From the NCBI RefSeq assembly GCF_022846255.1, contig NZ_AP025682.1: a stretch of DNA of 64,000 nucleotides. One strand, written 5' to 3'. Below, in pieces: positions 4,728-34,892 of this stretch (the first letter of the stretch is position 1; each line of letters begins with the position of its first letter). The translations under genes and the position numbers were made by a program. The notes beneath the pieces are model-generated. The model did not search any database. It was not told the origin of the DNA and was given only the letters and a program-made list of their open reading frames with translations. The stretch comes from Escherichia coli (lineage in GTDB: Bacteria; Pseudomonadota; Gammaproteobacteria; Enterobacterales; Enterobacteriaceae).

Positions 4728-4745
4728 GTCGGGATTCCTGTTTTT

Positions 4746-4761
4746 ATACGTCTGGATGTCT
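4746..4761. promoter_or_regulatory. Candidate MetJ operator (tandem met boxes) upstream of metC
   Basis: Tandem 8-mers atacgtct and ggatgtct match met-box consensus AGACGTCT at 7/8 and 6/8, 19-34 bp upstream of metC start. Confidence 0.5.
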
Positions 4762-4978
4762 AAACTAGCATGAATATTCGCGGGCGCATCCTGAAGAATT
4801 GGCATAAAGCAGAAAATTTTCGCAAATGGCGTGCTGGTGACTTTTTTACTGCGTAAACGCAAGGAAAAGAAAGCAAAGGTACGGCAGTATGCAAATAGTA
4901 ATGAGAACGACTATCAATTCGACGTCGTTTTGATATTATTATGCACAGATTTTGTGACTTGCGTCCTGGAGATACACA

Positions 4979-5713: not shown

Positions 5714-5719
5714 TGTCCG

Positions 5720-6145: not shown

Positions 6146-6150
6146 AAATG

Positions 6151-6185
6151 ATGCCCGGTTGCTTTTCACAACCGGGCATTTTTTT
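6151..6185. terminator. Rho-independent terminator after exbD (bidirectional with yghA)
   Basis: 10-bp stem atgcccggtt / aaccgggcat, 9-nt loop, followed by 7 T. Confidence 0.8.
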
Positions 6186-7068: not shown

Positions 7069-7189
7069 CGTTTTTCTCCCTTCAGGTTCAACGTCCTTTA
7101 AGGGTAGACGCTCTCGATGCGTTGATAAGGGAACCAGGAAGATCCCTAACCCTCAGAATTATGCGACAAAGGTTTAACGTATATGTTGA

Positions 7190-7753
<564 letters not shown>

Positions 7754-7760
7754 TCTGATT

Positions 7761-7781
7761 CGGGCGCGGTTCTCGCGCCCG
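7761..7781. terminator. Hairpin terminator between convergent yqhA and gpr
   Basis: cgggcgcg / cgcgcccg stem with 5-nt loop. Confidence 0.5.
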
Positions 7782-7792
7782 TTATTAACAGG

Positions 7793-10471: not shown

Positions 10472-11590
10472 ATGACTGGAGATAACACCCTCATCCATTC
10501 TCACGGCATTAACCGTCGTGATTTCATGAAGCTTTGTGCAGCATTAGCCGCCACCATGGGGTTAAGTAGCAAAGCCGCTGCAGAGATGGCCGAATCGGTT
10601 ACTAACCCGCAGCGTCCGCCAGTTATCTGGATTGGCGCGCAGGAGTGCACCGGTTGTACGGAATCTCTGCTTCGTGCAACGCATCCAACGGTAGAAAACC
10701 TCGTGCTGGAGACTATCTCTCTGGAGTATCACGAAGTGCTTTCCGCCGCCTTCGGTCATCAGGTCGAAGAGAACAAACATAACGCTCTCGAGAAGTACAA
10801 AGGGCAGTATGTGTTAGTGGTGGATGGTTCCATCCCATTAAAAGATAACGGTATTTATTGCATGGTTGCCGGTGAGCCGATTGTGGATCACATCCGCAAA
10901 GCGGCGGAAGGCGCAGCAGCCATTATCGCTATCGGTTCCTGCTCTGCGTGGGGCGGCGTCGCCGCAGCTGGAGTTAACCCAACTGGCGCAGTCAGCCTGC
11001 AAGAAGTTCTGCCTGGCAAAACCGTTATCAATATTCCTGGCTGCCCGCCGAACCCGCACAACTTCCTGGCGACCGTTGCGCACATCATCACTTATGGCAA
11101 ACCGCCGAAACTGGATGACAAAAACCGTCCGACTTTCGCCTATGGTCGTCTGATTCACGAACACTGTGAACGTCGCCCGCACTTCGATGCTGGTCGTTTT
11201 GCCAAAGAGTTCGGTGATGAAGGCCACCGCGAAGGCTGGTGCCTGTACCACCTTGGCTGTAAAGGGCCAGAAACTTACGGCAACTGCTCAACGCTGCAAT
11301 TCTGCGATGTTGGCGGCGTGTGGCCGGTAGCGATTGGTCACCCGTGCTATGGCTGTAACGAAGAAGGTATCGGCTTCCATAAAGGCATCCATCAGCTTGC
11401 CAACGTCGAAAACCAGACTCCGCGTTCACAGAAACCGGACGTTAACGCTAAAGAAGGCGGCAACGTCTCGGCAGGCGCTATTGGTTTGCTCGGCGGTGTG
11501 GTTGGGCTGGTTGCCGGTGTCAGCGTGATGGCGGTGCGTGAACTGGGTCGTCAGCAAAAGAAAGATAACGCTGACTCACGGGGAGAATAA
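10472..11590 (+). CDS. hybO: Hydrogenase 2 small subunit, Tat-exported, 372 aa
   Basis: Twin-arginine motif RRDFMK near N-terminus; Cys-rich FeS ligands; C-terminal TM anchor. Confidence 0.95.
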
Positions 11591-11592
11591 CC

Positions 11593-12579
11593 GTGAACAG
11601 ACGTAATTTTATTAAAGCAGCCTCCTGCGGGGCATTGCTGACGGGCGCGCTGCCGTCTGTCAGTCATGCGGCTGCTGAAAACCGCCCGCCAATTCCGGGA
11701 TCGCTGGGGATGTTGTACGACTCGACCTTGTGCGTAGGCTGTCAGGCTTGCGTCACCAAGTGTCAGGATATCAACTTCCCTGAACGTAACCCGCAAGGGG
11801 AACAGACCTGGTCGAACAACGACAAACTGTCGCCGTATACCAATAACATCATTCAGGTGTGGACCAGCGGCACAGGGGTCAACAAAGACCAGGAGGAGAA
11901 TGGCTACGCGTACATTAAGAAACAGTGTATGCACTGCGTCGATCCGAACTGTGTCTCTGTGTGCCCGGTCTCTGCGCTGAAAAAAGATCCGAAAACCGGC
12001 ATTGTCCATTACGACAAAGATGTGTGCACCGGCTGCCGTTACTGCATGGTCGCCTGCCCATACAACGTGCCGAAGTACGACTACAACAACCCGTTTGGTG
12101 CGCTGCATAAGTGCGAGTTGTGCAACCAGAAAGGTGTGGAACGTCTCGATAAAGGCGGTCTGCCTGGCTGCGTAGAAGTGTGCCCGGCGGGCGCGGTGAT
12201 TTTTGGTACGCGTGAAGAGCTGATGGCGGAGGCGAAAAAACGTCTGGCGCTGAAGCCGGGCAGCGAATACCACTATCCGCGTCAGACGCTGAAATCTGGC
12301 GACACTTACCTGCATACGGTGCCGAAATATTATCCGCATCTGTACGGCGAGAAAGAGGGCGGCGGTACTCAGGTTCTGGTACTGACGGGTGTGCCTTATG
12401 AAAATCTCGACCTGCCGAAACTGGACGATCTTTCTACTGGTGCGCGTTCCGAACATGTCCAACACACCCTGTATAAAGGCATGATGCTACCACTGGCTGT
12501 GCTGGCGGGCTTAACCGTGCTGGTTCGTCGCAACACTAAAAACGACCATCACGACGGAGGAGACGATCATGAGTCATGA
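11593..12579 (+). CDS. hybA: Hydrogenase 2 4Fe-4S ferredoxin-type subunit, 328 aa
   Basis: GTG start; RRNF Tat motif; multiple CxxCxxCxxxCP ferredoxin motifs. Confidence 0.95.
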
Positions 12580-13747
12580 TCCACAACCGCTGGGCGGCAA
12601 AATCATCAGTAAACCGGTCATGATTTTTGGACCGTTAATCGTCATCTGTATGCTCCTGATTGTGAAGCGTCTGGTGTTCGGTCTGGGCTCTGTCTCCGAC
12701 CTGAACGGCGGCTTCCCGTGGGGCGTGTGGATCGCGTTTGACCTGCTGATCGGTACCGGCTTTGCCTGTGGCGGCTGGGCGCTGGCGTGGGCAGTATACG
12801 TCTTTAACCGTGGGCAATACCATCCGCTGGTGCGTCCGGCGCTGTTGGCGAGTCTGTTTGGTTATTCACTGGGTGGCTTGTCGATCACTATCGACGTGGG
12901 TCGCTACTGGAACCTGCCGTACTTCTACATTCCGGGTCACTTCAACGTGAACTCGGTACTGTTCGAGACGGCGGTCTGTATGACCATCTACATCGGTGTG
13001 ATGGCACTGGAGTTTGCTCCGGCATTGTTTGAACGTCTGGGCTGGAAGCTGTCACTCAAACGTCTGAACAAGGTGATGTTCTTTATCATCGCGCTTGGTG
13101 CGCTGCTGCCAACTATGCACCAGTCTTCAATGGGATCGCTGATGATCTCGGCGGGCTACAAGGTGCATCCGCTGTGGCAAAGCTATGAAATGTTGCCGCT
13201 GTTCTCGCTGCTGACGGCGTTCATCATGGGCTTCTCGATTGTCATCTTTGAAGGTTCGTTGGTGCAGGCGGGTCTGCGTGGCAACGGTCCGGATGAAAAG
13301 AGTCTGTTCGTTAAGCTGACCAACACCATCAGTGTGTTGCTGGCGATTTTCATCGTGCTGCGCTTTGGCGAGCTTATCTATCGCGACAAGCTGTCGTTAG
13401 CGTTTGCCGGTGACTTCTACTCCGTGATGTTCTGGATTGAAGTCCTGCTGATGCTCTTCCCGCTGGTCGTTCTGCGTGTGGCGAAGTTGCGTAATGATTC
13501 CCGCATGCTGTTCCTGTCAGCACTGAGTGCACTGTTAGGTTGTGCAACCTGGCGTCTGACCTATTCGCTGGTGGCATTCAACCCGGGTGGCGGTTACGCC
13601 TACTTCCCGACCTGGGAAGAACTGTTGATTTCTATTGGTTTTGTGGCTATTGAGATTTGCGCTTATATCGTACTCATTCGTCTACTGCCGATACTTCCTC
13701 CTTTAAAACAAAACGATCATAATCGTCATGAGGCGAGCAAAGCATGA
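12569..13747 (+). CDS. hybB: Hydrogenase 2 integral membrane (cytochrome b-type) subunit, 392 aa
   Basis: Polytopic hydrophobic protein; overlaps hybA stop by 11 nt. Confidence 0.93.
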
Positions 13748-21919: not shown

Positions 21920-22612
21920 CTAGTGATAACCACGCGCGGTCATAAAATCCGTAATCGCTTTTTCTGCATCAACCAGCACCTTTTCCAGTGGCTGATTGGC
22001 GTCGATATCAACCAGTTGTGCACCACCAAAGGTTAACTGTGGCGTTATGGCAATCTTCCTCGCCAGCGATTCCCGTTTATGGTCGGGTTTACGCGCGCAG
22101 GCAACTTCAAGGTCAACATTGAGTTTGATGACCAGATCGGGCTTGTGGCTCGCCATCCAGTGAAATGCTTTACGTTCCTGACTTGCCAGCCATGAGACAA
22201 AACGACCACCTTCAACGTTAGGCGGAAACACCGTACCATCATAAGCGCCAGGAATCTGGTCCTGCGGATAACGGTCGGTTAAAACAATTAACCCGCGACG
22301 ACGACAGGCAAGCATATGACGAAAGCGCAGTAAGCGACGGGCGACAAACGCTGTAATTACCAGCGCCGGAACTGGTCCAGGCAATTTTTTTGCTGTTTTT
22401 ACCTGATTTCGTTCAATTGTTTTATGTAAGGATTTTCCCATCAACGGTAATTTTGTCACTGCACGACCGACATTTCCGGCCTGTTTTCCTAAATGAACTC
22501 TTTCGGCAGCACCATATTTTTCGACAACGGTAATAAGATGTTCACACACCGTTGACTTGCCTGAACCATCGCTACCAATAACGGCAATTAATGGAGGTAT
22601 TATTGACTGCAT
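21920..22612 (-). CDS. yghT: P-loop NTPase of unknown function (paralogue of yghS/yghR), 230 aa
   Basis: Walker [10 protein letters not shown]; shared TDRYPQ and ARKPDH motifs with yghS and yghR. Confidence 0.85.
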
Positions 22613-22786
22613 GAATATATCCTTAAATTTAAATATCCATCCAAAATATTTATTTGGTTAATATGTTTTTGATGAAAGCGTAATTCAGGTCAATGTCACA
22701 ATTAACCATTGTCACAATAAGGTTGAACGGATATTCTGAGCACGGACCACGTAATATTCAATACATTATTTGCTGCCGGGTTTTTC

Positions 22787-23500
22787 GTGAATCAACGTAA
22801 TATGTCAATAATTAATTCCACGCCAGTGCGTGTTATTGCCATTGTAGGATGTGATGGTTCAGGTAAATCGACCCTCACGGCAAGCCTGGTAAATGAACTG
22901 GCAGCAACAATGCCAACAGAACACATTTATCTCGGGCAATCGTCCGGGCGAATTGGCGAATGGATTTCACAGCTCCCTGTTATTGGCGCACCTTTTGGGC
23001 GTTATCTGCGAAGTAAAGCGGCACATGTGCACGAAAAGCCCTCCACACCACCTGGCAATATTACTGCGCTGGTTATCTATCTGCTTTCCTGCTGGCGGGC
23101 GTACAAGTTTCGCAAAATGTTGTGTAAAAGCCAGCAAGGCTATCTGCTCATCACCGACCGCTACCCGCAGGTTGAAGTGCCGGGTTTTCGCTTTGATGGC
23201 CCGCAATTGGCAAAAACCACGGGCGGTAACGGTTGGATAAAAATGTTAAGGCAGCGCGAGCTGAAGCTGTACCAATGGATGGAGTCTTATTTGCCCGTAT
23301 TGTTGATTCGTCTTGGCATTGATGAACAAACCGCGTTTGCGCGTAAACCTGACCACCAACTGGCGGCGTTACAGGAAAAAATCGCCGTTACGCCGCAACT
23401 GACATTTAATGGCGCAAAGATCCTTGAACTGGATGGTCGGCAACCCGCCGATGAAATTCTGCAAGCGTCACTACGCGCAATTCACGCCGCGCTTTCCTGA
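22787..23500 (+). CDS. yghS: P-loop NTPase of unknown function, 237 aa
   Basis: GTG start; Walker A GCDGSGKST; TDRYPQ and ARKPDH motifs. Confidence 0.85.
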   Translation: MNQRNMSIINSTPVRVIAIVGCDGSGKSTLTASLVNELAATMPTEHIYLGQSSGRIGEWISQLPVIGAPFGRYLRSKAAHVHEKPSTPPGNITALVIYLLSCWRAYKFRKMLCKSQQGYLLITDRYPQVEVPGFRFDGPQLAKTTGGNGWIKMLRQRELKLYQWMESYLPVLLIRLGIDEQTAFARKPDHQLAALQEKIAVTPQLTFNGAKILELDGRQPADEILQASLRAIHAALS

Positions 23501-23531
23501 TCACCAAAATGGATAGGGGATGATTTAACGA

Positions 23532-24290
23532 ATGGACGCACTACAAACACAAACTGTTAATAGTACAACCGCGCCGCAGCCCAACTACATTCCGGGGCTG
23601 ATTGCGGTGGTCGGGTGTGATGGCACCGGTAAATCCACACTGACCACCGACCTGGTGAAATCGCTGCAACAACACTGGCAAACCGAGCGGCGCTATCTGG
23701 GGCTGCTCTCGGGCGAAGACGGCGACAAAATCAAACGATTGCCGTTGGTTGGCGTCTGGCTCGAACGGCGACTGGCGGCCAAATCCTCGAAAACCCAAAG
23801 CATGAAAACCAAATCTCCAGCGCTATGGGCGGCGGTGATTATGTACTGCTTCTCGCTGCGAAGAATGGCGAATCTACGCAAGGTTCAGCGACTGGCGCAA
23901 AGTGGCGTTCTGGTGGTCAGCGATCGCTTCCCGCAGGCTGAAATTTCGGGCTTTTATTATGACGGACCGGGGATCGGCGTCGAACGTGCGACCGGGAAAA
24001 TCAGCATGTTTCTGGCGCAGCGCGAACGGCGTTTATACCAACAAATGGCGCAACACCGTCCTGAATTAATCATTCGTTTGGGGATTGATATTGATACTGC
24101 CATCTCCCGCAAGCCTGACCATGACTATGCCGAGCTGCAGGACAAAATCGGCGTCATGTCGACGATTGGCTATAACGGCACAAAAATTCTTGAGATTGAT
24201 TCCAGAGCGCCCTACAGCGAAGTGCTGGAACAGGCACAGAAGGCGGTTTCTCTGGTTGCCATCGTTTCTGACCGCCGAAGTTTAACTTAA
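23532..24290 (+). CDS. yghR: P-loop NTPase of unknown function, 252 aa
   Basis: Walker A GCDGTGKST; SDRFPQ and SRKPDH motifs. Confidence 0.85.
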   Translation: MDALQTQTVNSTTAPQPNYIPGLIAVVGCDGTGKSTLTTDLVKSLQQHWQTERRYLGLLSGEDGDKIKRLPLVGVWLERRLAAKSSKTQSMKTKSPALWAAVIMYCFSLRRMANLRKVQRLAQSGVLVVSDRFPQAEISGFYYDGPGIGVERATGKISMFLAQRERRLYQQMAQHRPELIIRLGIDIDTAISRKPDHDYAELQDKIGVMSTIGYNGTKILEIDSRAPYSEVLEQAQKAVSLVAIVSDRRSLT

Positions 24291-24335
24291 GGCTGGCGGG
24301 ATACTTTTTACTATCAACGATAAGGTCAGGCTGAA

Positions 24336-25685
24336 TTGGCGGGTTTTAACATCAAACATTGGTTTGCAGATGGCGCGTTTCGCACCATTATTCGCAATAG
24401 CGCCTGGTTAGGCTCCAGTAATGTCGTGAGCGCTTTGCTGGGTCTGTTGGCGCTCTCGTGTGCCGGTAAAGGGATGACGCCCGCCATGTTTGGCGTACTG
24501 GTGATTGTACAATCGTACGCCAAGTCGATCAGCGATTTTATTAAGTTTCAGACATGGCAGCTGGTGGTTCAGTACGGAACACCAGCATTAACCAACAATA
24601 ATCCGCAGCAATTTCGCAATGTCGTCTCATTTTCCTTCTCGCTGGATATCGTCAGCGGCGCGGTGGCGATTGTCGGCGGCATTGCCTTACTCCCTTTTCT
24701 TTCCCATTCATTAGGTCTGGATGACCAAAGCTTTTGGCTGGCAGCGCTGTATTGCACGCTCATTCCTTCAATGGCTTCCTCCACGCCGACCGGCATTCTG
24801 CGTGCGGTAGATCGCTTCGATCTAATTGCTGTACAGCAAGCGACGAAACCTTTTCTGCGCGCAGCGGGGAGCGTCGTTGCCTGGTATTTTGACTTTGGTT
24901 TTGCGGGTTTTGTTATTGCCTGGTACGCCTCGAATCTTGTTGGCGGCACCATGTACTGGTGGTTTGCCGCACGTGAATTACGCCGCAGAAATATCCATAA
25001 CGCGTTCAAATTGAATCTGTTTGAGTCTGCCCGACACATCAAAGGCGCGTGGAGTTTTGTCTGGTCAACCAACATTGCCCATTCCATCTGGTCGGCGCGT
25101 AATTCGTGCAGCACAGTGTTGGTGGGGATCGTGTTAGGACCCGCTGCCGCCGGGTTATTTAAAATCGCCATGACATTCTTCGACGCCGCCGGAACGCCAG
25201 CGGGTTTACTGGGCAAAAGTTTTTACCCAGAGGTGATGCGTTTAGATCCGCGTACCACCAGACCGTGGTTGTTAGGCGTGAAGTCAGGTTTACTGGCGGG
25301 CGGAATCGGTATTCTGGTGGCGCTCGCGGTGTTGATTGTCGGCAAGCCGCTCATTTCGCTGGTGTTTGGCGTTAAGTATCTCGAAGCGTATGACCTGATT
25401 CAGGTGATGCTGGGCGCAATTGTGATCTCGATGCTGGGCTTCCCTCAGGAGTCATTGCTATTGATGGCGGGAAAACAGCGCGCTTTTCTCGTGGCGCAAA
25501 CCATCGCCTCAATCGGCTACATCGTATTGCTGTTCATGTTCTGTCATCTGTTTGGCGTGCTGGGAGCAGCGTTTGCTTATTTCGGCGGTCAATGTCTGGA
25601 TGTGGTGCTTTCGCTAATTCCGACCTTAAAGGCATTTTTTCAGCGCCATTCCTTGCTTTATAACGCAGCCGGAGAGAAATCCTGA
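24336..25685 (+). CDS. yghQ: Polytopic membrane protein, putative MOP-superfamily lipid/polysaccharide flippase; start uncertain (TTG 24336 or ATG 24474/24486)
   Basis: Long hydrophobic ORF with about 10-12 predicted TM segments; stop overlaps next gene start (ATGA). Confidence 0.7.
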   Translation: MAGFNIKHWFADGAFRTIIRNSAWLGSSNVVSALLGLLALSCAGKGMTPAMFGVLVIVQSYAKSISDFIKFQTWQLVVQYGTPALTNNNPQQFRNVVSFSFSLDIVSGAVAIVGGIALLPFLSHSLGLDDQSFWLAALYCTLIPSMASSTPTGILRAVDRFDLIAVQQATKPFLRAAGSVVAWYFDFGFAGFVIAWYASNLVGGTMYWWFAARELRRRNIHNAFKLNLFESARHIKGAWSFVWSTNIAHSIWSARNSCSTVLVGIVLGPAAAGLFKIAMTFFDAAGTPAGLLGKSFYPEVMRLDPRTTRPWLLGVKSGLLAGGIGILVALAVLIVGKPLISLVFGVKYLEAYDLIQVMLGAIVISMLGFPQESLLLMAGKQRAFLVAQTIASIGYIVLLFMFCHLFGVLGAAFAYFGGQCLDVVLSLIPTLKAFFQRHSLLYNAAGEKS

Positions 25686-26521
25686 TGATGAGAAAATATT
25701 TCCCGCTAGAGGCGAGCGAGCGTCTATTTGTTGCGATTGAAGAAGATGATGTCGTTGATGCACAGGTCAGTTTGCCGCCGACTATCGCACTAAGTTGTAC
25801 CACCGAAATCATCCATGATAATTACGCGTTATGCCTGCAATTCTGGCTCAATGGCGTCAATCGCCAGGAGTTACTGCGTTTAATATGCAAACAGGCCAAA
25901 GGCGATGAGCTGACTGCTGATGAGCGCAAACAATTTAAATACATGCGAGCGCGCTACAAGCACCTGCGTTTTGCGCAACGGCTGTATTTAAAGAAGCATC
26001 AGGCCGGATTTTTATTCGGCAAAACGACCGTTTTTTTGGGGCGTTTTCAGGATGGCTTTCGTAACGGTAAGAAAAATATTGTGTCGTTTTACAGTAACCT
26101 GTTACGTGTTTATTTGAGCTCCCCTGTCTGGTGGCTGGTGAACTATTCATTGCGCCATAGCCAGTTAGAAACCGTGAACGGTTTTATCGCCTACCGCCAG
26201 AAGCAAATGTACATCCTGAAAGAGATTATTGCTAAACCGCAACTAACTGGCAGGGAATTTCATGATGTGCGAAAAATCATCAGCCAGCAGGTTTCTTATT
26301 ACGACACCTTAAGATCGCTTGATCCTGAAAATAAAGAGGCGTTACTGATTTCCCGTTTTCTCGCCGCCATTAATGGTCTGATGGGGGATAAGCACGACGA
26401 CATGGTGGCGGATGATATGGAGAACCGCCGGTCATATGATGCACCGGTGGCGCTGGATAGCGATATTCGCCAGCGTTTAGAACTGCTTATTTCGCGTTTC
26501 CCACTCTATCCGGAGCAATAA
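25685..26521 (+). CDS. Hypothetical cytoplasmic protein, 278 aa, no family recognised
   Basis: ORF with GGAGAGA RBS 8 nt upstream; translationally coupled to yghQ and the next ORF. Confidence 0.65.
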   Translation: MMRKYFPLEASERLFVAIEEDDVVDAQVSLPPTIALSCTTEIIHDNYALCLQFWLNGVNRQELLRLICKQAKGDELTADERKQFKYMRARYKHLRFAQRLYLKKHQAGFLFGKTTVFLGRFQDGFRNGKKNIVSFYSNLLRVYLSSPVWWLVNYSLRHSQLETVNGFIAYRQKQMYILKEIIAKPQLTGREFHDVRKIISQQVSYYDTLRSLDPENKEALLISRFLAAINGLMGDKHDDMVADDMENRRSYDAPVALDSDIRQRLELLISRFPLYPEQ

Positions 26522-27081
26522 TGCCATCTCGTTGGATTTTCGCTCTGATCATCGCACTCTTAGCGCCAGGCGCGGCGGCACACAATTTCGTCACTGGCAA
26601 AACGGTTACCCCTGTTTATATCCAGGAAGGCGGCGAGCTGCTTCTGAATAGCGACGACGAAATTCACTACCAAAAGTGGAACAGCACACAATTGACGGGA
26701 AAAGTTCGCATTATTCAGTACATCGCCGGGCGTAAGTCGGCGAAGAAAAAGAACTCACTGTTAATTAAAGCGGTTGAAGCGGCAAACTTTCCGCAGGATC
26801 GTTTTCAGCCCACCACCATTGTGAACACTGATGATGCCATCTTTGGTACCGGCTATTTTGTCGTTGGCAAAATCGAAAAAAATAAACGCCGCTATCCGTG
26901 GGCGCAATTCGTTATTGACGGCAATGGACAGGGACGCGTTGCCTGGCACTTGCAGGAGCAGAGTTCAACCATTCTGGTGCTGAATAAAACCGGGCAAATT
27001 CAGTGGGCAAAGGACGGCAGCCTGACGCCGGAAGAGGTAGATCATGTCATTGCGCTGGCGCAGAAGCTGATCAATGAATAA
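26521..27081 (+). CDS. Hypothetical exported protein with N-terminal signal peptide, 186 aa
   Basis: N-terminus MPSRWIFALIIALLAPGAAAHNF resembles a Sec signal; ATG overlaps preceding stop (TAATG). Confidence 0.65.
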   Translation: MPSRWIFALIIALLAPGAAAHNFVTGKTVTPVYIQEGGELLLNSDDEIHYQKWNSTQLTGKVRIIQYIAGRKSAKKKNSLLIKAVEAANFPQDRFQPTTIVNTDDAIFGTGYFVVGKIEKNKRRYPWAQFVIDGNGQGRVAWHLQEQSSTILVLNKTGQIQWAKDGSLTPEEVDHVIALAQKLINE

Positions 27082-27110
27082 AAATTCAAAGGATTGAGGG
27101 CGTTAGTGAG

Positions 27111-28181
27111 ATGAAGCTGGTTGAACACTACATCATGCGTGGTACGCGCCGTCTGGTGCTGATTATCGTCGGTTTTCTGATCTTTATTTTCGCCAGCTAC
27201 TCCGCACAGCGTTATCTGACCGAAGCGGCAAATGGGACATTAGCTCTTGATGTTGTGCTGGATATCGTTTTCTACAAAGTGCTGATTGCACTGGAGATGT
27301 TGTTACCTGTTGGACTGTATGTGTCAGTTGGCGTGACGCTAGGGCAGATGTATACCGACTCGGAAATTACCGCTATCTCTGCGGCGGGGGGCAGTCCGGG
27401 ACGCTTGTACAAAGCCGTTCTTTATCTGGCGATACCGCTAAGTATTTTTGTCACCCTTCTGTCGATGTATGGTCGTCCGTGGGCTTATGCGCAGATTTAT
27501 CAACTGGAGCAACAGTCACAGTCGGAGCTGGATGTTCGCCAGTTGCGGGCAAAGAAATTTAACACTAACGATAACGGACGAATGATCCTTTCGCAGACGG
27601 TTGATCAGGATAATAATCGCCTGACTGACGCGCTGATTTATACTTCTACTGCTAATCGAACCCGCATTTTCCGCGCCCGTTCGGTTGATGTGGTTGACCC
27701 ATCACCTGAGAAACCGACCGTTATGTTGCATAACGGGACCGCCTATCTTCTCGATCATCAGGGGCGTGACGACAACGAACAGATCTACCGTAATCTGCAA
27801 TTACATCTGAATCCGCTGGATCAAAGCCCTAACGTCAAACGCAAAGCAAAATCGGTCACGGAGCTGGCGCGCTCCGCCTTTCCTGCCGATCATGCCGAAC
27901 TGCAATGGCGACAAAGCCGTGGCCTGACAGCATTGTTGATGGCGCTGCTGGCCATTTCATTAAGTCGGGTAAAACCGCGGCAAGGGCGATTTTCAACGTT
28001 ATTGCCACTGACGTTGCTGTTTGTTGCCATTTTTTATGGCGGCGACGTCTGCCGTACGCTGGTGGCTAACGGCGCGATTCCCCTCATTCCTGGTTTGTGG
28101 TTAGTACCCGGACTCATGCTAATGGGCCTGCTGATGTTGGTCGCACGCGACTTCTCTTTGCTGCAGAAATTTTCCCGATGA
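27111..28181 (+). CDS. LptF/LptG-family (YjgP/YjgQ) permease-like membrane protein, 356 aa
   Basis: 3 TM + about 150-aa hydrophilic domain + 3 TM topology read from translation; N-terminus resembles LptF. Confidence 0.7.
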   Translation: MKLVEHYIMRGTRRLVLIIVGFLIFIFASYSAQRYLTEAANGTLALDVVLDIVFYKVLIALEMLLPVGLYVSVGVTLGQMYTDSEITAISAAGGSPGRLYKAVLYLAIPLSIFVTLLSMYGRPWAYAQIYQLEQQSQSELDVRQLRAKKFNTNDNGRMILSQTVDQDNNRLTDALIYTSTANRTRIFRARSVDVVDPSPEKPTVMLHNGTAYLLDHQGRDDNEQIYRNLQLHLNPLDQSPNVKRKAKSVTELARSAFPADHAELQWRQSRGLTALLMALLAISLSRVKPRQGRFSTLLPLTLLFVAIFYGGDVCRTLVANGAIPLIPGLWLVPGLMLMGLLMLVARDFSLLQKFSR

Positions 28182-29257
28182 ATGTTTTCAGTCGCTATTT
28201 AATCCGTCATCTCTTTCTCGGTTTTGCCGCCGCCGCAGGGCTATTGCTGCCGCTTTTTACCACCTTCAACCTGATTAACGAACTGGATGATGTCAGCCCG
28301 GGTGGTTATCGCTGGACTCAGGCGGTGCTGGTGGTGCTGATGACCTTACCGCGCACACTGGTCGAACTTTCGCCGTTTATCGCCTTATTGGGAGGGATTG
28401 TCGGCCTGGGGCAGTTATCGAAAAACAGTGAGCTTACCGCCATTCGCAGCACGGGGTTTTCTATCTTCCGTATTGCACTGGTGGCGCTGGTTGCCGGGAT
28501 ATTGTGGACTGTTTCATTAGGCGCGATAGATGAGTGGGTGGCGTCGCCATTGCAGCAACAGGCGCTGCAAATCAAATCGACTGCCACCGCGTTGGGGGAG
28601 GACAATGACATTATCGGCAATATGCTTTGGGCCAGGCGCGGTAATGAATTTGTGACGGTGAAATCGCTGAACGAGCAGGGCCAGCCGGTGGGCGTGGAGA
28701 TTTTTCATTACCGCGACGATCTCTCGCTCGAATCCTACATTTATGCGCGCAGTGCCACCATTGAAGACGATAAAACGTGGATCCTGCATGGTGTGAATTA
28801 TAAAAAATGGTTGAATGGCAAAGAAACGCTGGAAACATTAGATAATCTTGCCTGGCAATCGGCCTTCACCAGTATGAATCTTGAAGAGTTATCGATGCCG
28901 GGGAATACTTTTTCTGTCCGTCAGCTTAATCATTACATCCATTATTTGCAGGATACCGGGCAACCCAGCAGCGAATACCACCTTGCACTGTGGGAAAAAC
29001 TGGGGCAACCGATCTTGACTCTGGCGATGATTTTGCTGGCTGTGCCGTTTACCTTTAGTGTCCCGCGCTCGCCAGGGATGGGTAGCCGTCTCGCTGTAGG
29101 CGTCATCGTTGGTTTACTCACCTGGATCAGCTATCAAATCATGGTCAATCTGGGATTGCTATTTGCGTTGAGCGCACCTGTTACCGCGCTCGGTTTACCG
29201 GTAGCGTTTGTGCTGGTGGCGTTGAGCCTGGTGTATTGGTATGACAGACAACATTAA
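28178..29257 (+). CDS. LptF/LptG-family (YjgP/YjgQ) permease-like membrane protein, 359 aa
   Basis: ORF-track 386 aa trimmed to MNVFSRYLIRHLF; ATG overlaps upstream stop (ATGA); same 3+3 TM topology. Confidence 0.7.
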   Translation: MNVFSRYLIRHLFLGFAAAAGLLLPLFTTFNLINELDDVSPGGYRWTQAVLVVLMTLPRTLVELSPFIALLGGIVGLGQLSKNSELTAIRSTGFSIFRIALVALVAGILWTVSLGAIDEWVASPLQQQALQIKSTATALGEDNDIIGNMLWARRGNEFVTVKSLNEQGQPVGVEIFHYRDDLSLESYIYARSATIEDDKTWILHGVNYKKWLNGKETLETLDNLAWQSAFTSMNLEELSMPGNTFSVRQLNHYIHYLQDTGQPSSEYHLALWEKLGQPILTLAMILLAVPFTFSVPRSPGMGSRLAVGVIVGLLTWISYQIMVNLGLLFALSAPVTALGLPVAFVLVALSLVYWYDRQH

Positions 29258-29288
29258 ACCCGCCGTGGCGCAACACCACGGCGGGTTC
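29257..29288. terminator. Bidirectional terminator hairpin between convergent permease and lipid operons
   Basis: 12-bp perfect stem aacccgccgtgg / ccacggcgggtt with 8-nt loop. Confidence 0.55.
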
Positions 29289-29291
29289 ACA

Positions 29292-30464
29292 TTACTGCTT
29301 CTGAGTAGCAAATGCCTGAATGATGGCATCGATTTGCTCACGACTGTGGGCAGCGTTTACGCTACAGCGCAGCAGCGTGATGCCAGCAGGCGCGGCAGGT
29401 GGCAGGATAAGATTCACATAAACGCCCAGCGAAATAAGCTCGCGCCAGATGCGTAAACCTTCCTCTTTCGAACCGATTATTACTGGCACTACCGGGCTAA
29501 TATGTGAACTTAACTCGTAACCCAGTTTTTGCAGACCGTCATACAGATGGTTGGCGTTATCCATCAGCTTTTGCCGCAGCTCTGGTTGTGAGGCAATGGT
29601 TCTTAACGACGAGCGCACGGTCGCAATGCAGGACGGAGAAGGAGAGGCGGTAAAAATATACGGGCGGCTGCCGTAGCGCAGCACTTCCATCGCTTCCGAA
29701 CCGACAGCAAAACCGCCAATCGAGGCCAGACTTTTACTGAAGGTGCCGACGATAATATCCACGTCGTCTTCAACGCCAACGGCTTCAACCAGTCCGCGCC
29801 CCGTAGCGCCTAACACGCCAAACGAATGTGCTTCATCGACAATCAAATAACCACCGAGACGACGTTTGATATCAACAATTTCTGCCAGCGGCGCAACGTC
29901 ACCGAGCATACTGTAGATGCCTTCAACGATAATAATCGCCTCTTTCGCCCGTTCACCGAGGCGGACCATGCGCCGTTCCAGATCGTTGACGTCATTATGG
30001 CGGAAACGAATAATCTCCGCGCCGCCGAGAGAACAGGCGTCATAAATACTGGCGTGGCTGTCGGCATCCAGTAACACCACGGCGTTATGGTCGGCAAGTG
30101 CGCTGATGACACCTAAATTAGCGGTATAACCGGTTGAAAAAACGATAGCGGTAGGGCGATTGAAAAACTCGGCAATCTCTTTCTCTAACGCCAGATGCGG
30201 CGCATAACTGCCGTTTGCCATACGAGAACCGGTGGTGCCGGTGCCTTGGGCCGCTAACGCTGCCTGACCTTCGCGGATAGCATCATGATTAAAGGTTAAA
30301 CCGAGATAATTATTGGTCCCGGCCAGAATCACTTTTTTATTGCCGATCCGGCCTTCGGTGGCGGAATATACTTCATCAATACAGGTGCCAAATGGTGTTA
30401 ACCCGTTGTCACTAAATTGCAGGCGCTCGCCAGCAAGGCGCGCATATTTATCGTATAGCCCCAT
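29292..30464 (-). CDS. PLP-dependent alpha-oxoamine synthase family acyltransferase (serine palmitoyltransferase / 8-amino-7-oxononanoate synthase-like), 390 aa
   Basis: PLP-lysine motif GTFSKSLAS and DEAHSFG; class-II aminotransferase fold inferred from translation. Confidence 0.8.
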   Translation of the reverse strand: MGLYDKYARLAGERLQFSDNGLTPFGTCIDEVYSATEGRIGNKKVILAGTNNYLGLTFNHDAIREGQAALAAQGTGTTGSRMANGSYAPHLALEKEIAEFFNRPTAIVFSTGYTANLGVISALADHNAVVLLDADSHASIYDACSLGGAEIIRFRHNDVNDLERRMVRLGERAKEAIIIVEGIYSMLGDVAPLAEIVDIKRRLGGYLIVDEAHSFGVLGATGRGLVEAVGVEDDVDIIVGTFSKSLASIGGFAVGSEAMEVLRYGSRPYIFTASPSPSCIATVRSSLRTIASQPELRQKLMDNANHLYDGLQKLGYELSSHISPVVPVIIGSKEEGLRIWRELISLGVYVNLILPPAAPAGITLLRCSVNAAHSREQIDAIIQAFATQKQ

Positions 30465-30712
30465 TATTTATTCTCCAGCCATGGAAGTAGAGTTTCCATT
30501 AATTGCGCAGGGGTTTTGACATCCAGCAGAATATTAATAGGAATGGAAATATCGAATCTGTCTTCCAGCATCATTAAGAGATCCATCACTTTGATCGACT
30601 CCAGGCCAAGATCGTTGACGAGATCGCTGTCGGGCTTAATTTCCACACCGTTTTCGACCAAATCCTGTAAACAGGAAAGGATGTAATCCATTACTATTTC
30701 ACGATTTACCAT
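30464..30712 (-). CDS. Acyl carrier protein, 82 aa
   Basis: Phosphopantetheine-attachment motif DLGLESIKVMDL; small acidic protein; stop overlaps next start. Confidence 0.8.
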   Translation of the reverse strand: MVNREIVMDYILSCLQDLVENGVEIKPDSDLVNDLGLESIKVMDLLMMLEDRFDISIPINILLDVKTPAQLMETLLPWLENK

Positions 30713-30743
30713 AGAAACGTTAACACACCTTTAAACAAGACAA

Positions 30744-31658
30744 TCAAAATAGCCCGTTGCGTAATGCGTGTTCCAGGCTAATCCCGGGAAACCAATTAAT
30801 ATCTTCAGAAATACGGTTATTACTTGCCGACCAGTCGGCATGAGTTAATTCACGGATTTTCGAACGAGTCAGCATCGGTTCTTTACCCGCCAGACGGCTC
30901 AACGCGGTACTGATATCCGCAAGGCAGGTGAGTAGCGGCAGAGGAATACCGACCATCCGCACGGAACCACAGCGGACATCGGCAACAAGCTGTTGGACAC
31001 GTTGCCAGTCATAGCCTCCGGCGACGCCATCGCATAATTCATAGGTTTGCGTCTGTACAGTTTCGGCGCTTAACCACTGACCCACTGCTTGCGCAAAATC
31101 GGTGACGTGAAGAAAAGAGAGCAGTGTCTCTGGCGTGCCAAGTCGTGGCAGCAGACCGCGCAGCATCCAGTCAAACAGCGGTTTTAACTCTTTATCGCCG
31201 GGACCATACACGGCTGTCGGGCGAAAAACGCCCAACGTAATTTCGTCAGCCATTGCAGTCAGCCGTTGTTCGGCGACGTGTTTGGAATTTGCGTACCAGG
31301 AGAGTTCGGGATGGCGCGCCGCCAGCGAAGAGATAAACAGAAAACGTTGGCAAAAGCCGCTCTCTTTTGCCGCTTGCATCAGGCGCAGGCTGCCGTCAAC
31401 GTTGCAGCGGGTAAAAATCTCTTCTTTGTGCCCGCGCACTTGCCCGGCGCAATGGACCACCGCGCTGGCTCCGGCAACCAGTTCGCTAAGCGAATGTGTA
31501 TCTTCCAGCGAACCGCGCACCCAAGTGAGATTATCATTGACGTGAGCGCGGGCAGTACGCGTCAATGCGCGAACGTGAAAGCCGCGGGCGAGCAGGTTAT
31601 CAATAATATATTTACCGATAAACCCGGTAGCGCCCGTCACCGCGACAGTTTGATTCAT
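30744..31658 (-). CDS. NAD(P)-dependent epimerase/dehydratase-family reductase (extended SDR), 304 aa
   Basis: ORF-track 374 aa trimmed to MNQTVAVTGATGFIGKY (Rossmann GxxGxxG); ATG overlaps upstream stop (ATGA). Confidence 0.78.
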   Translation of the reverse strand: MNQTVAVTGATGFIGKYIIDNLLARGFHVRALTRTARAHVNDNLTWVRGSLEDTHSLSELVAGASAVVHCAGQVRGHKEEIFTRCNVDGSLRLMQAAKESGFCQRFLFISSLAARHPELSWYANSKHVAEQRLTAMADEITLGVFRPTAVYGPGDKELKPLFDWMLRGLLPRLGTPETLLSFLHVTDFAQAVGQWLSAETVQTQTYELCDGVAGGYDWQRVQQLVADVRCGSVRMVGIPLPLLTCLADISTALSRLAGKEPMLTRSKIRELTHADWSASNNRISEDINWFPGISLEHALRNGLF

Positions 31659-33379
31659 GCCAGGGATTCCTGCACATGAAGACTGGCAGCATAAGCCTTC
31701 TGATAACGTTTTTTCGCTTCCGCACGGGCAGGCTTGCCGGAGGATGTTCGGGGAATACTGTGGGGCGGCAACAGATCGATATCCGCGGTAACGCCAAATT
31801 CGCTTTGGATCCGAGCTGCCAGCGCGTGGATAAGCTGCCCGCGACGTTCTTCGTCGCTGATCCGACACTGGATCTGCAAAATGATTTTTTCCTGGGCGGT
31901 AACAAAAGCAATCGCATCGCCAGAATGAATTTCCGGCTCCTGTTCCGCAATGTATTCAATATCCTGCGGCCAGATATTACGGCCACGAATAATAATCAGA
32001 TCTTTAATGCGTCCGGTGACATACAGATAACCGTCCAGCAGATAACCAAGGTCTCCGGTGTCTAACCAGCCCGTCGCGGCAATCTCGTCTTGCGAAACCT
32101 GGTCGCCAAAGTACCCGCTCATCAGGCTGGGGCCGGAGATGCAAATATGGCCTACCACACGTTCCGCGACAGGTATATCTGCTTCATTGCGGATTTCAAT
32201 GCCATGTTCCGGCAACGCTTTACCGCAGTTGACGAAAGTCGATACGGCGCGTGTTTCAGCACCCGGCGCGACGGCTTTACCCTGGTATTCGAGGATGTCG
32301 CGATCCACTTCGTTAACCACAACCCCGCAGGCTTCATCAGAGAAGCTGACAGCCAGCGCATTTTCTGCCAGTCCGTAGCACGGCATGAAAGTTTTATCGT
32401 CAAAGTTAACCTGACGGAAACATTCAGCGAATTGATGGAGTTGTTCTGCGGATATGGGTTCTGCGCCAATACCAGCGACGCGCCAGCAGGAAAGATCCAG
32501 TTCAGCGAGATCTTTTTCATTCACGCGGCGCTGGCACAATTCATAGCCAAACGGCGGTGCAACGGAAACGGTGCCACGATTTTTACTGATCAATTTAAGC
32601 CATTGCAGAGGACGCATGGCAAAATCCTGAGTGCGCAAATAATCTACTGAAAGCTGCGTGGCGACGGGGGTCAGGAGAAAGCCGACCAGTCCCATATCAT
32701 GGTAGAAAGGCAGCCAGGAGACGCAGCGGTCGCCAGGGCGTAATTTAATCCCATCGTGGCTTATAGCACGTAGATTAGCCATCACTTCGTGATGGGTGAT
32801 AATGACGCCACGGGGAAAACGGGTGCTGCCGGAGGTGTACTGGAGGTAGGCGATATCGTTTGGAACTGGACGCTGGAGCACAACATCGGCTTCCGGTAAT
32901 GCCTTAAACCAGGCGTGGCTTAAAACATGTAATTCGGGGTTGTTGTTATGCGTCGCGGCATTGACCAGTGGCAACCACTCATCACCAGTGATAATGGCTG
33001 CGGGCTGGCAACTTGCCAGTAAACCCTGCAGTTTGGCGCTCCAGGAATCCCGCTGACCTACGCCCATTGGAATCGCCAACGGGACGGCGACTAAGCCGGC
33101 ATACTGGCAGGCAAAAAAAGCCTCTACAAACCCGCTACTCGTTTCGGCAATCAGCGCCACGCGATCGCCTTTTTTCAGGTTCAGCGATAACAACCTTTTC
33201 GCACCAGCTTCGGCACGCGCTTTTAACGTCTGATATTCCAGTTGATCTTCAAGTTGGCAACGTCTGTCATAAAAATTCATTCCGGCGCTACTCAGAGCGG
33301 CGTAGTCCAAAGCATCAACCAGCGTTGGAAAATCGGCATAGCGCATAGGTAGGGAATGCGTAAAGATTTTATTAGACAT
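31655..33379 (-). CDS. Fatty-acyl-AMP ligase / acyl-ACP synthetase-like adenylating enzyme, about 574 aa
   Basis: AMP-binding motifs YTSGSTRFPRG and GRIKDLIIIRGRNIWPQDIE; start set at ATG 33379 (alternative TTG 33406). Confidence 0.8.
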   Translation of the reverse strand: MSNKIFTHSLPMRYADFPTLVDALDYAALSSAGMNFYDRRCQLEDQLEYQTLKARAEAGAKRLLSLNLKKGDRVALIAETSSGFVEAFFACQYAGLVAVPLAIPMGVGQRDSWSAKLQGLLASCQPAAIITGDEWLPLVNAATHNNNPELHVLSHAWFKALPEADVVLQRPVPNDIAYLQYTSGSTRFPRGVIITHHEVMANLRAISHDGIKLRPGDRCVSWLPFYHDMGLVGFLLTPVATQLSVDYLRTQDFAMRPLQWLKLISKNRGTVSVAPPFGYELCQRRVNEKDLAELDLSCWRVAGIGAEPISAEQLHQFAECFRQVNFDDKTFMPCYGLAENALAVSFSDEACGVVVNEVDRDILEYQGKAVAPGAETRAVSTFVNCGKALPEHGIEIRNEADIPVAERVVGHICISGPSLMSGYFGDQVSQDEIAATGWLDTGDLGYLLDGYLYVTGRIKDLIIIRGRNIWPQDIEYIAEQEPEIHSGDAIAFVTAQEKIILQIQCRISDEERRGQLIHALAARIQSEFGVTADIDLLPPHSIPRTSSGKPARAEAKKRYQKAYAASLHVQESLA

Positions 33380-33749
33380 ATACACCACGAAAAAATTGGA
33401 TATCAAAAATAAAATGACAATAATGCGGTGGATTATATAGGCATAAAAGATAAATGAGATAGTATTTTCATCGGTGTGAAAATGAACATTGATTTAAATA
33501 ATAAGTTTGGCTTTTTTGTTTTTATTGTGAATGATATTTAATTTGTGAATATATTAAGAAGGAGCCTTGTCCGGTCGCCTTAAATCGACAAGAGGCATTG
33601 TGGCGCTTCTGTGTAGTCTTTGACCTTATCGTAATCATTAATAAATACTATTTATTCTTTGTTTGTATTCATTGGGTTGATTATTAAGATGCCGTTCGTT
33701 GCTGTTGCAACCTGTTTTTCACCGTTAATTATTTGTTATCCACAGAGAT

Positions 33750-34892
33750 ATGGAATGCGATCTGCTGATGATTAAAATTGAAAAAGTAATTAATAAAAAA
33801 GACCTTAAGGCATTTATCGCTTTTCCGTCATCACTTTATCCCGATGATCCAAACTGGATACCCCCTTTATTCATTGAACGTAGCGAGCATTTGTCTGCGA
33901 AGAATCCGGGGACGGACCATATCATCTGGCAGGCGTGGGTGGCAAAAAAAGCGGGGCAGATAGTTGGGCGTATTACCGCGCAAATAGATACCTTGCACCG
34001 TGAGCGTTACGGTGAAGATACCGGTCATTTCGGAATGATTGATGCCATTGATGATCCGCAGGTTTTTGCCGCGTTGTTTGGCGCAGCGGAGGCGTGGTTG
34101 AAGTCACAAGGTGCAAGTAAGATCAGCGGGCCTTTCAGCCTGAATATCAATCAGGAAAGCGGATTACTGATTGAAGGTTTTGACACACCTCCCTGTGCGA
34201 TGATGCCACACGGCAAACCGTGGTATGCCGCGCATATTGAACAACTGGGTTATCACAAAGGCATTGATTTACTGGCGTGGTGGATGCAGCGAACCGATCT
34301 CACTTTCTCTCCGGCGCTAAAAAAACTGATGGATCAGGTGCGCAAAAAAGTGACCATTCGCTGCATCAATCGCCAGCGGTTTGCCGAAGAGATGCAGATC
34401 CTGCGTGAGATTTTCAATTCTGGCTGGCAGCACAACTGGGGATTTGTGCCGTTTACCGAACATGAATTCGCGACCATGGGCGATCAACTTAAATATCTGG
34501 TGCCGGACGATATGATCTACATCGCTGAGATTGATTCTGCACCCTGCGCGTTTATTGTTGGCTTGCCGAACATCAACGAGGCGATTACCGATCTGAACGG
34601 ATCGCTCTTTCCCTTCGGCTGGGCAAAATTGCTGTGGCGTTTGAAAGTCAGCGGTGTGCGAACTGCGCGAGTGCCGCTGATGGGCGTGCGGGACGAGTAT
34701 CAGTTCAGCCGCATCGGCCCGGTGATTGCGCTGTTATTGATTGAAGCCTTACGCGATCCGTTTGCCCGCCGGAAGATCGATGCGCTGGAAATGTCATGGA
34801 TCCTCGAAACCAATACAGGCATGAATAACATGCTGGAACGCATTGGGGCGGAGCCGTACAAGCGTTACCGATTGTATGAAAAGCAGATTTGA
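33750..34892 (+). CDS. yghO: Uncharacterised protein, possible N-acyltransferase; start uncertain (ATG 33750 or 33768), 380 aa
   Basis: ORF divergent from the lipid operon and convergent with glcC; symbol assigned by position relative to glcC from memory. Confidence 0.6.
   Translation: MECDLLMIKIEKVINKKDLKAFIAFPSSLYPDDPNWIPPLFIERSEHLSAKNPGTDHIIWQAWVAKKAGQIVGRITAQIDTLHRERYGEDTGHFGMIDAIDDPQVFAALFGAAEAWLKSQGASKISGPFSLNINQESGLLIEGFDTPPCAMMPHGKPWYAAHIEQLGYHKGIDLLAWWMQRTDLTFSPALKKLMDQVRKKVTIRCINRQRFAEEMQILREIFNSGWQHNWGFVPFTEHEFATMGDQLKYLVPDDMIYIAEIDSAPCAFIVGLPNINEAITDLNGSLFPFGWAKLLWRLKVSGVRTARVPLMGVRDEYQFSRIGPVIALLLIEALRDPFARRKIDALEMSWILETNTGMNNMLERIGAEPYKRYRLYEKQI

Follow-up and report, generated by a model that had tools for sequence, protein, structure and literature searches.

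The 64,000-nucleotide stretch of Escherichia coli DNA analyzed here (the window) carries a five-gene locus, positions 29292–34892, which we read as the proteobacterial (‘rhodobacterial’) ceramide pathway in its E. coli form, and we put the probability that this pathway explains the whole locus at roughly 0.9. The locus is already known: it was published, and partly tested biochemically, from E. coli BL21(DE3) (Padilla-Gomez et al., 2022, Front Microbiol 13:961041, PMC9386255), so that the cluster itself adds no new knowledge. What is added here is its distribution (4068 of the 5426 complete E. coli genomes, or ~75%, contain the 5.6-kb region), evidence for purifying selection and membership in a conserved 13-kb module. 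An earlier note, made from the sequence alone, had proposed a ceramide-type operon at this position, and this proposal is supported by curated models, structures, synteny and identity to the BL21(DE3) locus; all five open reading frames lie where that note placed them, and each of the motifs it listed (YTSGSTRFPRG, GRIKDLIIIRGRNIWPQDIE, VTGATGFIGKY, DLGLESIKV and GTFSKSLAS) occurs in their translations. Where it had left undecided whether the cluster was characterized, the literature gives the answer that three of the five proteins have been biochemically tested in BL21(DE3) (Padilla-Gomez et al., 2022).

Four of the genes lie on the minus strand in the order aasR (31655–33346; a fatty acyl-AMP ligase, the acyl-AcpR synthetase, 563 aa from the ATG at 33346), epi/cerR (30744–31658; an extended short-chain dehydrogenase/reductase or SDR of 304 aa, predicted to be a 3-oxo reductase, with a reading frame that opens at the ATG of MNQTVAVTGATGFIGKY), acpR (30464–30712; a dedicated acyl carrier protein of 82 aa) and spt (29292–30464; serine palmitoyltransferase, a PLP-dependent alpha-oxoamine synthase of 390 aa). 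The fifth, yghO (33750–34892; the aca/bCerS homologue, a tandem-GNAT protein and predicted bacterial ceramide synthase of 380 aa), is divergent on the plus strand. Translational coupling had been suggested for all four minus-strand genes, and the reading frames overlap at two of their three junctions: epi and aasR share an ATGA overlap at 31655–31658, and the acpR stop and spt start overlap by one base in TAATG at 30464, both as read from the sequence, whereas 31 nt (30713–30743) separate epi/cerR from acpR. Two gene starts deserve comment. That of aasR is ambiguous among a TTG at 33406, an ATG at 33379 (RefSeq, strain 23AR0806) and the ATG at 33346 (RefSeq, BL21), while for yghO, because homologues from other genera are 374 aa long, the ATG at 33768 (374 aa) appears more likely than that at 33750. 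The AT-rich intergenic region between aasR and yghO (33347–33749; GC about 0.39) presumably contains the promoters of both genes; sigma-70-like matches within it are weak and no commoner than in shuffled sequence, and scanning it for promoters, terminators and Rfam families returned nothing above background, with zero Rfam matches. At the other end, a GC-rich hairpin with a 16-bp stem (29255–29289) sits between spt and the convergent gene lptG2, and is likely a bidirectional terminator.

For the alpha-oxoamine synthase that spt encodes, the earlier assignment to Spt, as opposed to BioF, Kbl or CqsA, is borne out by both curated cut-offs and scores against solved structures. The protein passes the NCBIfam model NF047599 ‘serine palmitoyltransferase’ (597.3 bits vs a cut-off of 500), and RefSeq already annotates the gene as ‘spt: serine palmitoyltransferase’; BioF, Kbl, CqsA and ALAS readings were rejected, as all fall under their curated cut-offs (bioF 336 vs 426, Kbl 299 vs 460, CqsA-type 226 vs 428, ALAS 217 vs 339). 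Among solved structures the highest score is that of Sphingomonas SPT (375 bits), ahead of Kbl (205), BioF (181) and CqsA (128). All such enzymes have one fold and a PLP-lysine motif in common, and the weaker matches, to models of bioF, Kbl, the CqsA type and ALAS as well as to cysteate acyltransferase structures, could speak for a product other than a serine-derived sphingoid base, such as a CAI-1-like alpha-hydroxyketone signal, a cysteate-derived sulfonolipid precursor, a biotin precursor or an alanine- or glycine-derived deoxy-base. We consider any such product very improbable, given that the Spt model alone is above its curated cut-off and that the Spt margin over other solved alpha-oxoamine synthases is at least 170 bits. 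Moreover, condensation of L-serine with a long-chain acyl thioester to form 3-oxo-sphinganine has been published for the BL21 Spt (Padilla-Gomez et al., 2022).

AcpR is a small phosphopantetheine-binding protein encoded directly upstream of spt and unlike AcpP, with ACP-family model matches that are weak and all under the housekeeping-ACP (AcpP) cut-offs; its predicted phosphopantetheine site is the conserved Ser39 in DLGLES, and the BL21 protein (ECD_02853) incorporates beta-alanine, a building block of 4′-phosphopantetheine (Padilla-Gomez et al., 2022). AasR scores 867.9 bits against NCBIfam NF006624 (cut-off 600) and carries the adenylation motifs YTSGSTRFPRG and GRIKD, as befits a FAAL-type enzyme. 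[quoted passage not shown] Epi/CerR, with a Rossmann TGATGFIG and a YxxxK motif (YANSK) in its translation, matches SDR/epimerase profiles only, none past a curated cut-off, and its nearest solved proteins are NAD-dependent epimerase/NDUFA9-like; an HpnA identity was rejected (92 vs a cut-off of 368), and this type of reductase has no curated model of its own. It is an extended SDR encoded between aasR and acpR, with homologues at 32–42% identity in the same position in Caulobacteraceae, Nitrospirales and Desulfobacteraceae loci, and its BL21 counterpart ECD_02852 shares 34% identity with Caulobacter CC_1164 (E 7e-38; Padilla-Gomez et al., 2022). From these resemblances Epi/CerR is predicted to be the 3-oxo reductase of the pathway.

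YghO required structure prediction, since Pfam and NCBIfam scans of the protein gave zero matches and PDB sequences searched by profile yielded marginal GNAT matches only (E about 0.4). For its AlphaFold model (pLDDT 95.2), the top Foldseek matches in the PDB are all tandem GNATs (2wpw, 5kf1, 7q3a, MshD and Eis; E 1e-15 to 1e-9, TM 0.5–0.64), so that the acyltransferase role suggested for this divergent gene has found its N-acyltransferase fold. Full-length homology points the same way, as the BL21 orthologue ECD_02850 is 44% identical to the Caulobacter acyltransferase CC_1154 (CCNA_01212) over 98% coverage (E 1e-107; Padilla-Gomez et al., 2022, Table S2), and YghO is 41% identical to a protein that a Caulobacteraceae genome encodes ~6 kb downstream of its spt. 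We therefore predict, from homology and modeled fold, that YghO is a bacterial ceramide synthase that N-acylates the sphingoid base.

Taken together, these assignments suggest the following route. AasR would use ATP to activate a free fatty acid, which it would load onto the phosphopantetheine arm of AcpR, and Spt, with PLP on Lys244, would condense L-serine with acyl-AcpR to yield 3-oxo-sphinganine and CO2; both steps are shown for, or inferred from co-expression of, near-identical BL21(DE3) proteins. Judged by fold and by their genetically defined Caulobacter homologues, YghO would then N-acylate the long-chain base and Epi/CerR would reduce the 3-keto group to give dihydroceramide, although the order of N-acylation and 3-keto reduction is disputed in the literature. 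Synteny and Caulobacter experiments suggest that products of neighboring genes probably modify the lipid and carry it to the outer membrane, the transport candidates being YghQ, which is flippase-like, and a permease of LptF2 and LptG2 that may borrow LptB.

Experimental support for the first half of this route comes from BL21(DE3), where 3-oxo-sphinganine was formed once AasR(Ec), AcpR(Ec) and SPT(Ec) were expressed together, and where SPT(Ec) extracts preferred acyl-AcpR over palmitoyl-CoA; the same study identified ECD_02850 (yghO) and ECD_02852 as orthologues of the CC_1154 acyltransferase and the CC_1164 reductase (Padilla-Gomez et al., 2022). Thin-layer chromatography of empty-vector BL21(DE3) showed neither 3-oxo-sphinganine nor ceramide (Padilla-Gomez et al., 2022), and the native cluster may thus be silent in LB at 30 °C; in the literature searched we found no report of a native sphingolipid from unmanipulated E. 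coli. A cryptic or decaying remnant, one that yields no lipid in any natural setting of E. coli, would explain the empty-vector result, and would also sit well with the roughly 25% of complete genomes that have no intact copy, with the AT-rich divergent promoter region devoid of a strong sigma-70 match and with K-12, which lives without the cluster. We nevertheless regard such decay as improbable. Every open reading frame is intact, and dN/dS lies between 0.02 and 0.2 for all genes (compared among E. coli strains, E. whittamii and Citrobacter), equal to the flanking glcC and glcD, which indicates that the cluster is under purifying selection. The 13-kb module is retained at 95–99% identity in 4051 genomes and is syntenic across many genera. 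Finally, BL21 supplied with 3-oxo-sphinganine from overexpressed genes formed spots with the mobility of sphinganine and of ceramide, for which the authors suggest chromosomal enzymes as a possible source (Padilla-Gomez et al., 2022). The K-12 case is one of loss: an IS5-associated deletion, about 9 kb long, has removed the pathway.

The ceramide cluster is also conserved in its arrangement. At least 20 further loci, belonging to Enterobacterales, Pseudomonas, Nitrospirales, Desulfobacteraceae, Calditrichota and Caulobacteraceae, have their genes in the same order, and the order aasR-epi-acpR-spt with yghO nearby is kept from Enterobacterales to one Caulobacteraceae genome; this recurrence and the low dN/dS together argue that the five-gene arrangement is not due to chance. 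Moreover, the ceramide cluster belongs to a conserved 13-kb module. Adjacent and convergent to spt are two plus-strand permease genes, lptF2 (27111–28181; LptF family, TIGR04407 320 bits vs a cut-off of 230) and lptG2 (28178–29257; LptG family, TIGR04408 299 bits vs 240), and lptF/lptG-family genes co-locate with spt in Enterobacterales, Pseudomonas, Nitrospirales and Calditrichota, as expected of an LptB2FG-type exporter inside a sphingolipid locus. Caulobacter LptF2/G2 bind LptB and are needed to export sphingolipids (preprint 10.64898/2026.04.12.717747), and by analogy the E. coli pair is predicted to form the permease of a sphingolipid exporter. Lethality that depends on spt, an outcome pointing to transport, is also known from Caulobacter. 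Further along lie yghT (21920–22612, minus strand), yghS (22787–23500, plus) and yghR (23532–24290, plus), all thymidylate-kinase-like, a fold also seen in the YghS model; yghQ, encoding a MOP-family flippase (24336–25685, plus); a gene for a 278-aa protein without a family (25685–26521, plus); and one for a YtfJ-family protein (26521–27081, plus). The genes in 21920–27081 are syntenic with spt in Enterobacterales, Pseudomonas and Carnimonas, and in the literature searched no paper ties yghQ, yghR, yghS or yghT to sphingolipids. An identity of YghR/S/T with the Caulobacter ceramide kinase CpgB was rejected, CpgB being of the DAG-kinase family with a GGDG motif and YghR/S/T being P-loop proteins. 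More tentatively, and with the odds somewhat against it, we suggest that the ceramide genes are one half of a 13-kb module specific to gammaproteobacteria (21920–34892) in which YghR/S/T, the 278-aa protein, the periplasmic YtfJ-family protein and YghQ would build and export an undescribed head-group-modified (probably phosphorylated) sphingolipid by a chemistry unlike that of Caulobacter CpgABC; most wild E. coli would then carry sphingolipid in the outer membrane under non-laboratory conditions, and the textbook picture of a ‘sphingolipid-free’ E. coli would have arisen as an artefact, from the K-12 IS5 deletion.

E. coli serves as the textbook Gram-negative envelope, and its list of lipids, which rests on K-12, is without sphingolipids. 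Ceramide genes are intact and under selection in about three-quarters of sequenced strains, including pathogens and BL21, and absent from K-12. The conditions of their expression, the final lipid and the roles of yghQRST, the ytfJ-like gene and lptF2G2 bear on outer-membrane biology, sensitivity to polymyxin-type antibiotics and host signaling.

Among known systems, the BL21(DE3) genes ECD_02850–ECD_02854 are the same locus, with the same gene order and the same position between glcC and pitB, and differ by strain-level substitutions only: Spt is 98.2% identical (ECD_02854), AcpR 100% (ECD_02853), Epi 96.1% (ECD_02852), AasR 97.5% (ECD_02851) and YghO 98.9% (ECD_02850). The published account presents these genes as a trait of E. 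coli B strains (BL21, ETEC B7A), whereas we find them in three of every four complete E. coli genomes; a 2026 preprint draws the ‘sphingolipid operons’ of E. coli UTI89 beside those of Caulobacter, whose locus encodes LptF/LptG homologues.

The closest solved relatives of Spt are the Sphingomonas paucimobilis and S. wittichii enzymes (PDB 2jg2 and 2x8u; ~47% identity), which share the catalytic His, Asp, His and Lys (His137, Asp210, His213 and the PLP-lysine Lys244, codon 29733–29735, aligning with His159, Asp231, His234 and Lys265 of 2jg2) and the C-terminal Arg, that of LLRCS. They differ at sphingomonad Arg378, which is Leu in E. coli Spt and in all non-sphingomonad Spts examined; this Arg is, on these alignments, sphingomonad-specific. 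In Sphingomonadaceae aasR is in a distant part of the genome (Padilla-Gomez et al., 2022), and none of the Sphingomonas loci that we compared had an aasR within 10 kb of spt.

The Caulobacter crescentus sphingolipid region (CC_1162–CC_1165 plus CC_1154, within the 17-gene CC_1152–CC_1168) holds the same five enzyme types at identities of 34–53%, and the order spt-acp-reductase-synthetase given for it in the earlier note is right, both for CC_1162–CC_1165 (Padilla-Gomez et al., 2022) and for the Caulobacteraceae locus in our comparison. Like the E. coli module, it has LptF/LptG homologues and a flippase-like gene inside the locus. Caulobacter has, in addition, lptC2, the DAG-kinase-type ceramide kinase CpgB and other cpg head-group genes; no lptC2, CpgB-type kinase or other Caulobacter head-group gene was found in the window, and hence the E. 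coli end product cannot be read from Caulobacter. Conversely, the thymidylate-kinase-like paralogues yghR/S/T, the YtfJ-family protein and the family-less 278-aa protein belong to the E. coli locus and not to that of Caulobacter.

The five genes that the earlier note had placed in this region lie exactly where it put them in our ORF list: four co-directional minus-strand genes, namely spt (29292-30464, 390 aa), an ACP gene (acpR, 30464-30712, 82 aa), a Rossmann-fold reductase gene (epi/cerR, 30744-31658, 304 aa) and an adenylating-enzyme gene (aasR, 31655-33346, roughly 563 aa), with yghO (33750-34892) divergent on the plus strand. All the peptide motifs cited for them recur in the ORF translations. 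Translational coupling had been proposed throughout the four-gene run, and the sequence read directly does show an ATGA overlap (31655-31658) and a TAATG overlap (30464), but the reductase and ACP genes are separated by a 31-nt gap, so that two of the three junctions overlap. The annotated start of the adenylase gene varies between RefSeq genomes, and homologues in other genera suggest that YghO starts at 33768. A GC-rich hairpin with a 16-bp stem (29255-29289), likely a bidirectional terminator, nearly fills the 34 nt that separate the stop codon of spt from that of the convergent lptG2.

The cluster is a published, partly characterised locus, and its detection here is thus a correct rediscovery. 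It was studied in E. coli BL21(DE3) by Padilla-Gomez et al. 2022 (PMC9386255), where yghO is ECD_02850 (aca), followed by ECD_02851 (aasR), ECD_02852 (epi), ECD_02853 (acpR) and ECD_02854 (spt). Gene order and flanking genes are identical in the two strains, and the window's proteins match those of BL21(DE3) at 98.2% (Spt), 100% (AcpR), 96.1% (Epi), 97.5% (AasR) and 98.9% (YghO) identity. The RefSeq annotation already reads ‘spt: serine palmitoyltransferase’, and a 2026 preprint (10.64898/2026.04.12.717747) depicts the ‘sphingolipid operons’ of E. coli strain UTI89 alongside those of Caulobacter and S. wittichii.

The ceramide-pathway interpretation is supported, as the tests that the earlier note had set against it, including a placement of the alpha-oxoamine synthase with BioF, Kbl or CqsA and a YghO of some other fold, were all run and none contradicted it. 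Among NCBI curated families the synthase scores 597 bits against the ‘serine palmitoyltransferase’ equivalog NF047599 (cut-off 500) and stays under the cut-offs of the bioF, Kbl, CqsA-type autoinducer synthase and ALAS models; among sequences of solved structures the Sphingomonas SPTs come first (375 bits), ahead of Kbl (~205), BioF (~181) and CqsA (128), such that the enzyme sides with Spt. When it is aligned to S. paucimobilis SPT, its His137, Asp210, His213 and Lys244 match the catalytic residues His159, Asp231, His234 and Lys265, while Arg378 of the S. paucimobilis enzyme (‘RPPATP’ loop) is replaced by Leu at about residue 354 (LILPP). Since Leu occupies this position in all non-sphingomonad Spts examined, including those of Caulobacteraceae, Arg378 is sphingomonad-specific and does not define bacterial Spt. 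A 273-bp contig (about 1.5x coverage) in an Alkalicoccobacillus porphyridii (Bacillales) assembly carries the last 35 residues of an Spt at 97% identity to that of E. coli, and is almost certainly E. coli contamination.

The remaining proteins are in keeping with their proposed roles. The adenylating enzyme scores 868 bits against the fatty acyl-AMP ligase model NF006624 (cut-off 600), the 82-aa protein is an ACP that falls under the curated housekeeping-AcpP cut-offs, and the reductase, which carries TGATGFIG and YANSK motifs, belongs to the extended SDRs and has no curated NCBI family. YghO had no match among Pfam and NCBIfam models; its AlphaFold model draws on 43 diverse homologues and has very high confidence (pLDDT 95.2), and the top PDB matches are all tandem GNAT N-acyltransferases (the clavulanate tandem GNAT, glucosamine N-acetyltransferase, MAB_4324, MshD and Eis), so that the acyltransferase fold is present.

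In the pathway we propose, AasR would adenylate a free fatty acid and pass it to holo-AcpR, and Spt would condense L-serine with acyl-AcpR to 3-oxo-sphinganine, as was demonstrated for the nearly identical proteins of BL21 or deduced from their co-expression. When the three cognate proteins AasR(Ec), AcpR(Ec) and SPT(Ec) were produced together, 3-oxo-sphinganine formed, whereas AasR(Ec) with Caulobacter AcpR yielded none, from which the authors inferred cognate-specific acylation; SPT(Ec) extracts also preferred acyl-AcpR over palmitoyl-CoA (PMC9386255). YghO may then N-acylate the base and Epi/CerR may reduce the 3-keto group to give dihydroceramide, judging by fold, synteny and homology to genetically defined Caulobacter genes (CC_1154 versus ECD_02850, 44% identity, E 1e-107; CC_1164 versus ECD_02852, 34%, E 7e-38; PMC9386255 Table S2). 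Conflicting views on which of the two comes first, reduction (Olea-Ozuna 2021) or acylation (Stankeviciute 2022), are cited in PMC9386255. BL21 overexpressing genes that supply 3-oxo-sphinganine gave spots co-migrating with sphinganine and ceramide, possibly, according to the authors, through chromosomal ECD_02852 and ECD_02850, and empty-vector BL21 gave no visible sphingolipid (PMC9386255).

No sphingolipid from unmanipulated E. coli has been reported in the literature. The divergent aasR–yghO intergenic region (33347-33749, roughly 400 bp) is about 39% GC against about 51% in its neighbours, and a scan of it found no convincing sigma-70 site and no known RNA element. Such AT-richness would fit nucleoid-protein silencing of an operon that appears silent in laboratory culture.

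These genes have been viewed as an E. coli B-strain trait (PMC9386255); among 5426 complete E. coli genomes, 4068 cover 80% or more of the 5.6-kb region, and 4051 cover the 13-kb yghT–yghO stretch (21920-34892). In K-12 DH1, an IS5 lies between a truncated yghQ and yghO (4738-8103 of that locus), with the whole segment from the 3′ terminus of yghQ through aasR missing. Because some 9 kb between this terminus and the beginning of yghO have thus been exchanged for the IS5, the K-12 reference strain lacks spt and retains yghO and yghRST. The cluster might be thought a decaying relic, but dN/dS is 0.02–0.2 for all 13 genes (versus BL21, E. whittamii and Citrobacter), similar to flanking glcC and glcD, which speaks against decay.

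A synteny scan with Spt as query (one genome per species) returned 43 loci. The order aasR-epi-acpR-spt, with yghO nearby, occurs in Escherichia, Citrobacter, Sodalis, Tatumella, Rosenbergiella, Serratia, Pluralibacter and Pseudomonas, and also in Nitrospirales, Desulfobacteraceae, Calditrichota and Caulobacteraceae genomes. Further genes travel with it: lptF2 and lptG2 (27111-29257, plus strand, ATGA overlap, convergent to spt, both passing curated LptF/LptG models) in Enterobacterales, Pseudomonas, Nitrospirales and Calditrichota, and the yghR/S/T genes, with the cluster or spt, in Enterobacterales, Pseudomonas and Carnimonas. We tentatively propose, at a probability of roughly one in three, that these linked genes outside the five-gene cluster are a gammaproteobacterial branch for head-group synthesis and export, by which most wild E. 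coli would be sphingolipid producers.

Candidates for the head-group step are the three paralogous P-loop proteins of yghT (minus), yghS (plus) and yghR (plus) at 21920-24290, which share 35–39% identity and invariant Walker A GxDGxGKST, DR[YFW]PQ and RKPDH motifs. RefSeq labels them ‘dTMP kinase’, yet they score far under that model's cut-off; the YghS model, of moderate confidence, adopts a thymidylate/deoxynucleoside-kinase fold (TM about 0.55). Between yghQ and lptF2 lie a plus-strand gene for a 278-aa protein (25685-26521), with no Pfam or NCBIfam family match, and a YtfJ-family gene (26521-27081, plus) directly upstream of lptF2. The former is kept next to yghQ in Enterobacterales loci (49–94% identity), and its dN/dS of about 0.08 indicates purifying selection. 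A DgkA-type (DAGK_prokar) lipid kinase gene adjoins the cluster in Serratia liquefaciens (11354-11716 of its locus) and in Carnimonas (11596-12730 of its locus), there with an Asp/Arg beta-hydroxylase-family gene; both are possible lineage-specific sphingolipid-modifying enzymes, absent beside the E. coli locus.

The Caulobacter ceramide kinase CpgB is a DAG-kinase-type enzyme, ruling out kinship with YghR/S/T, and E. coli head-group chemistry therefore cannot be copied from Caulobacter. For export, the Caulobacter sphingolipid locus encodes LptF/G homologues, and LptF2/LptG2 there bind LptB and are required for sphingolipid export (preprint 10.64898/2026.04.12.717747); by analogy, E. coli LptF2/LptG2 would export sphingolipid via the housekeeping LptB. 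YghQ (24336-25685, plus) is a MOP-family flippase-like protein, full length here at 449 aa from a TTG start, and in one Caulobacteraceae genome a yghQ-like gene precedes aasR, matching the predicted Caulobacter flippase CC_1166.
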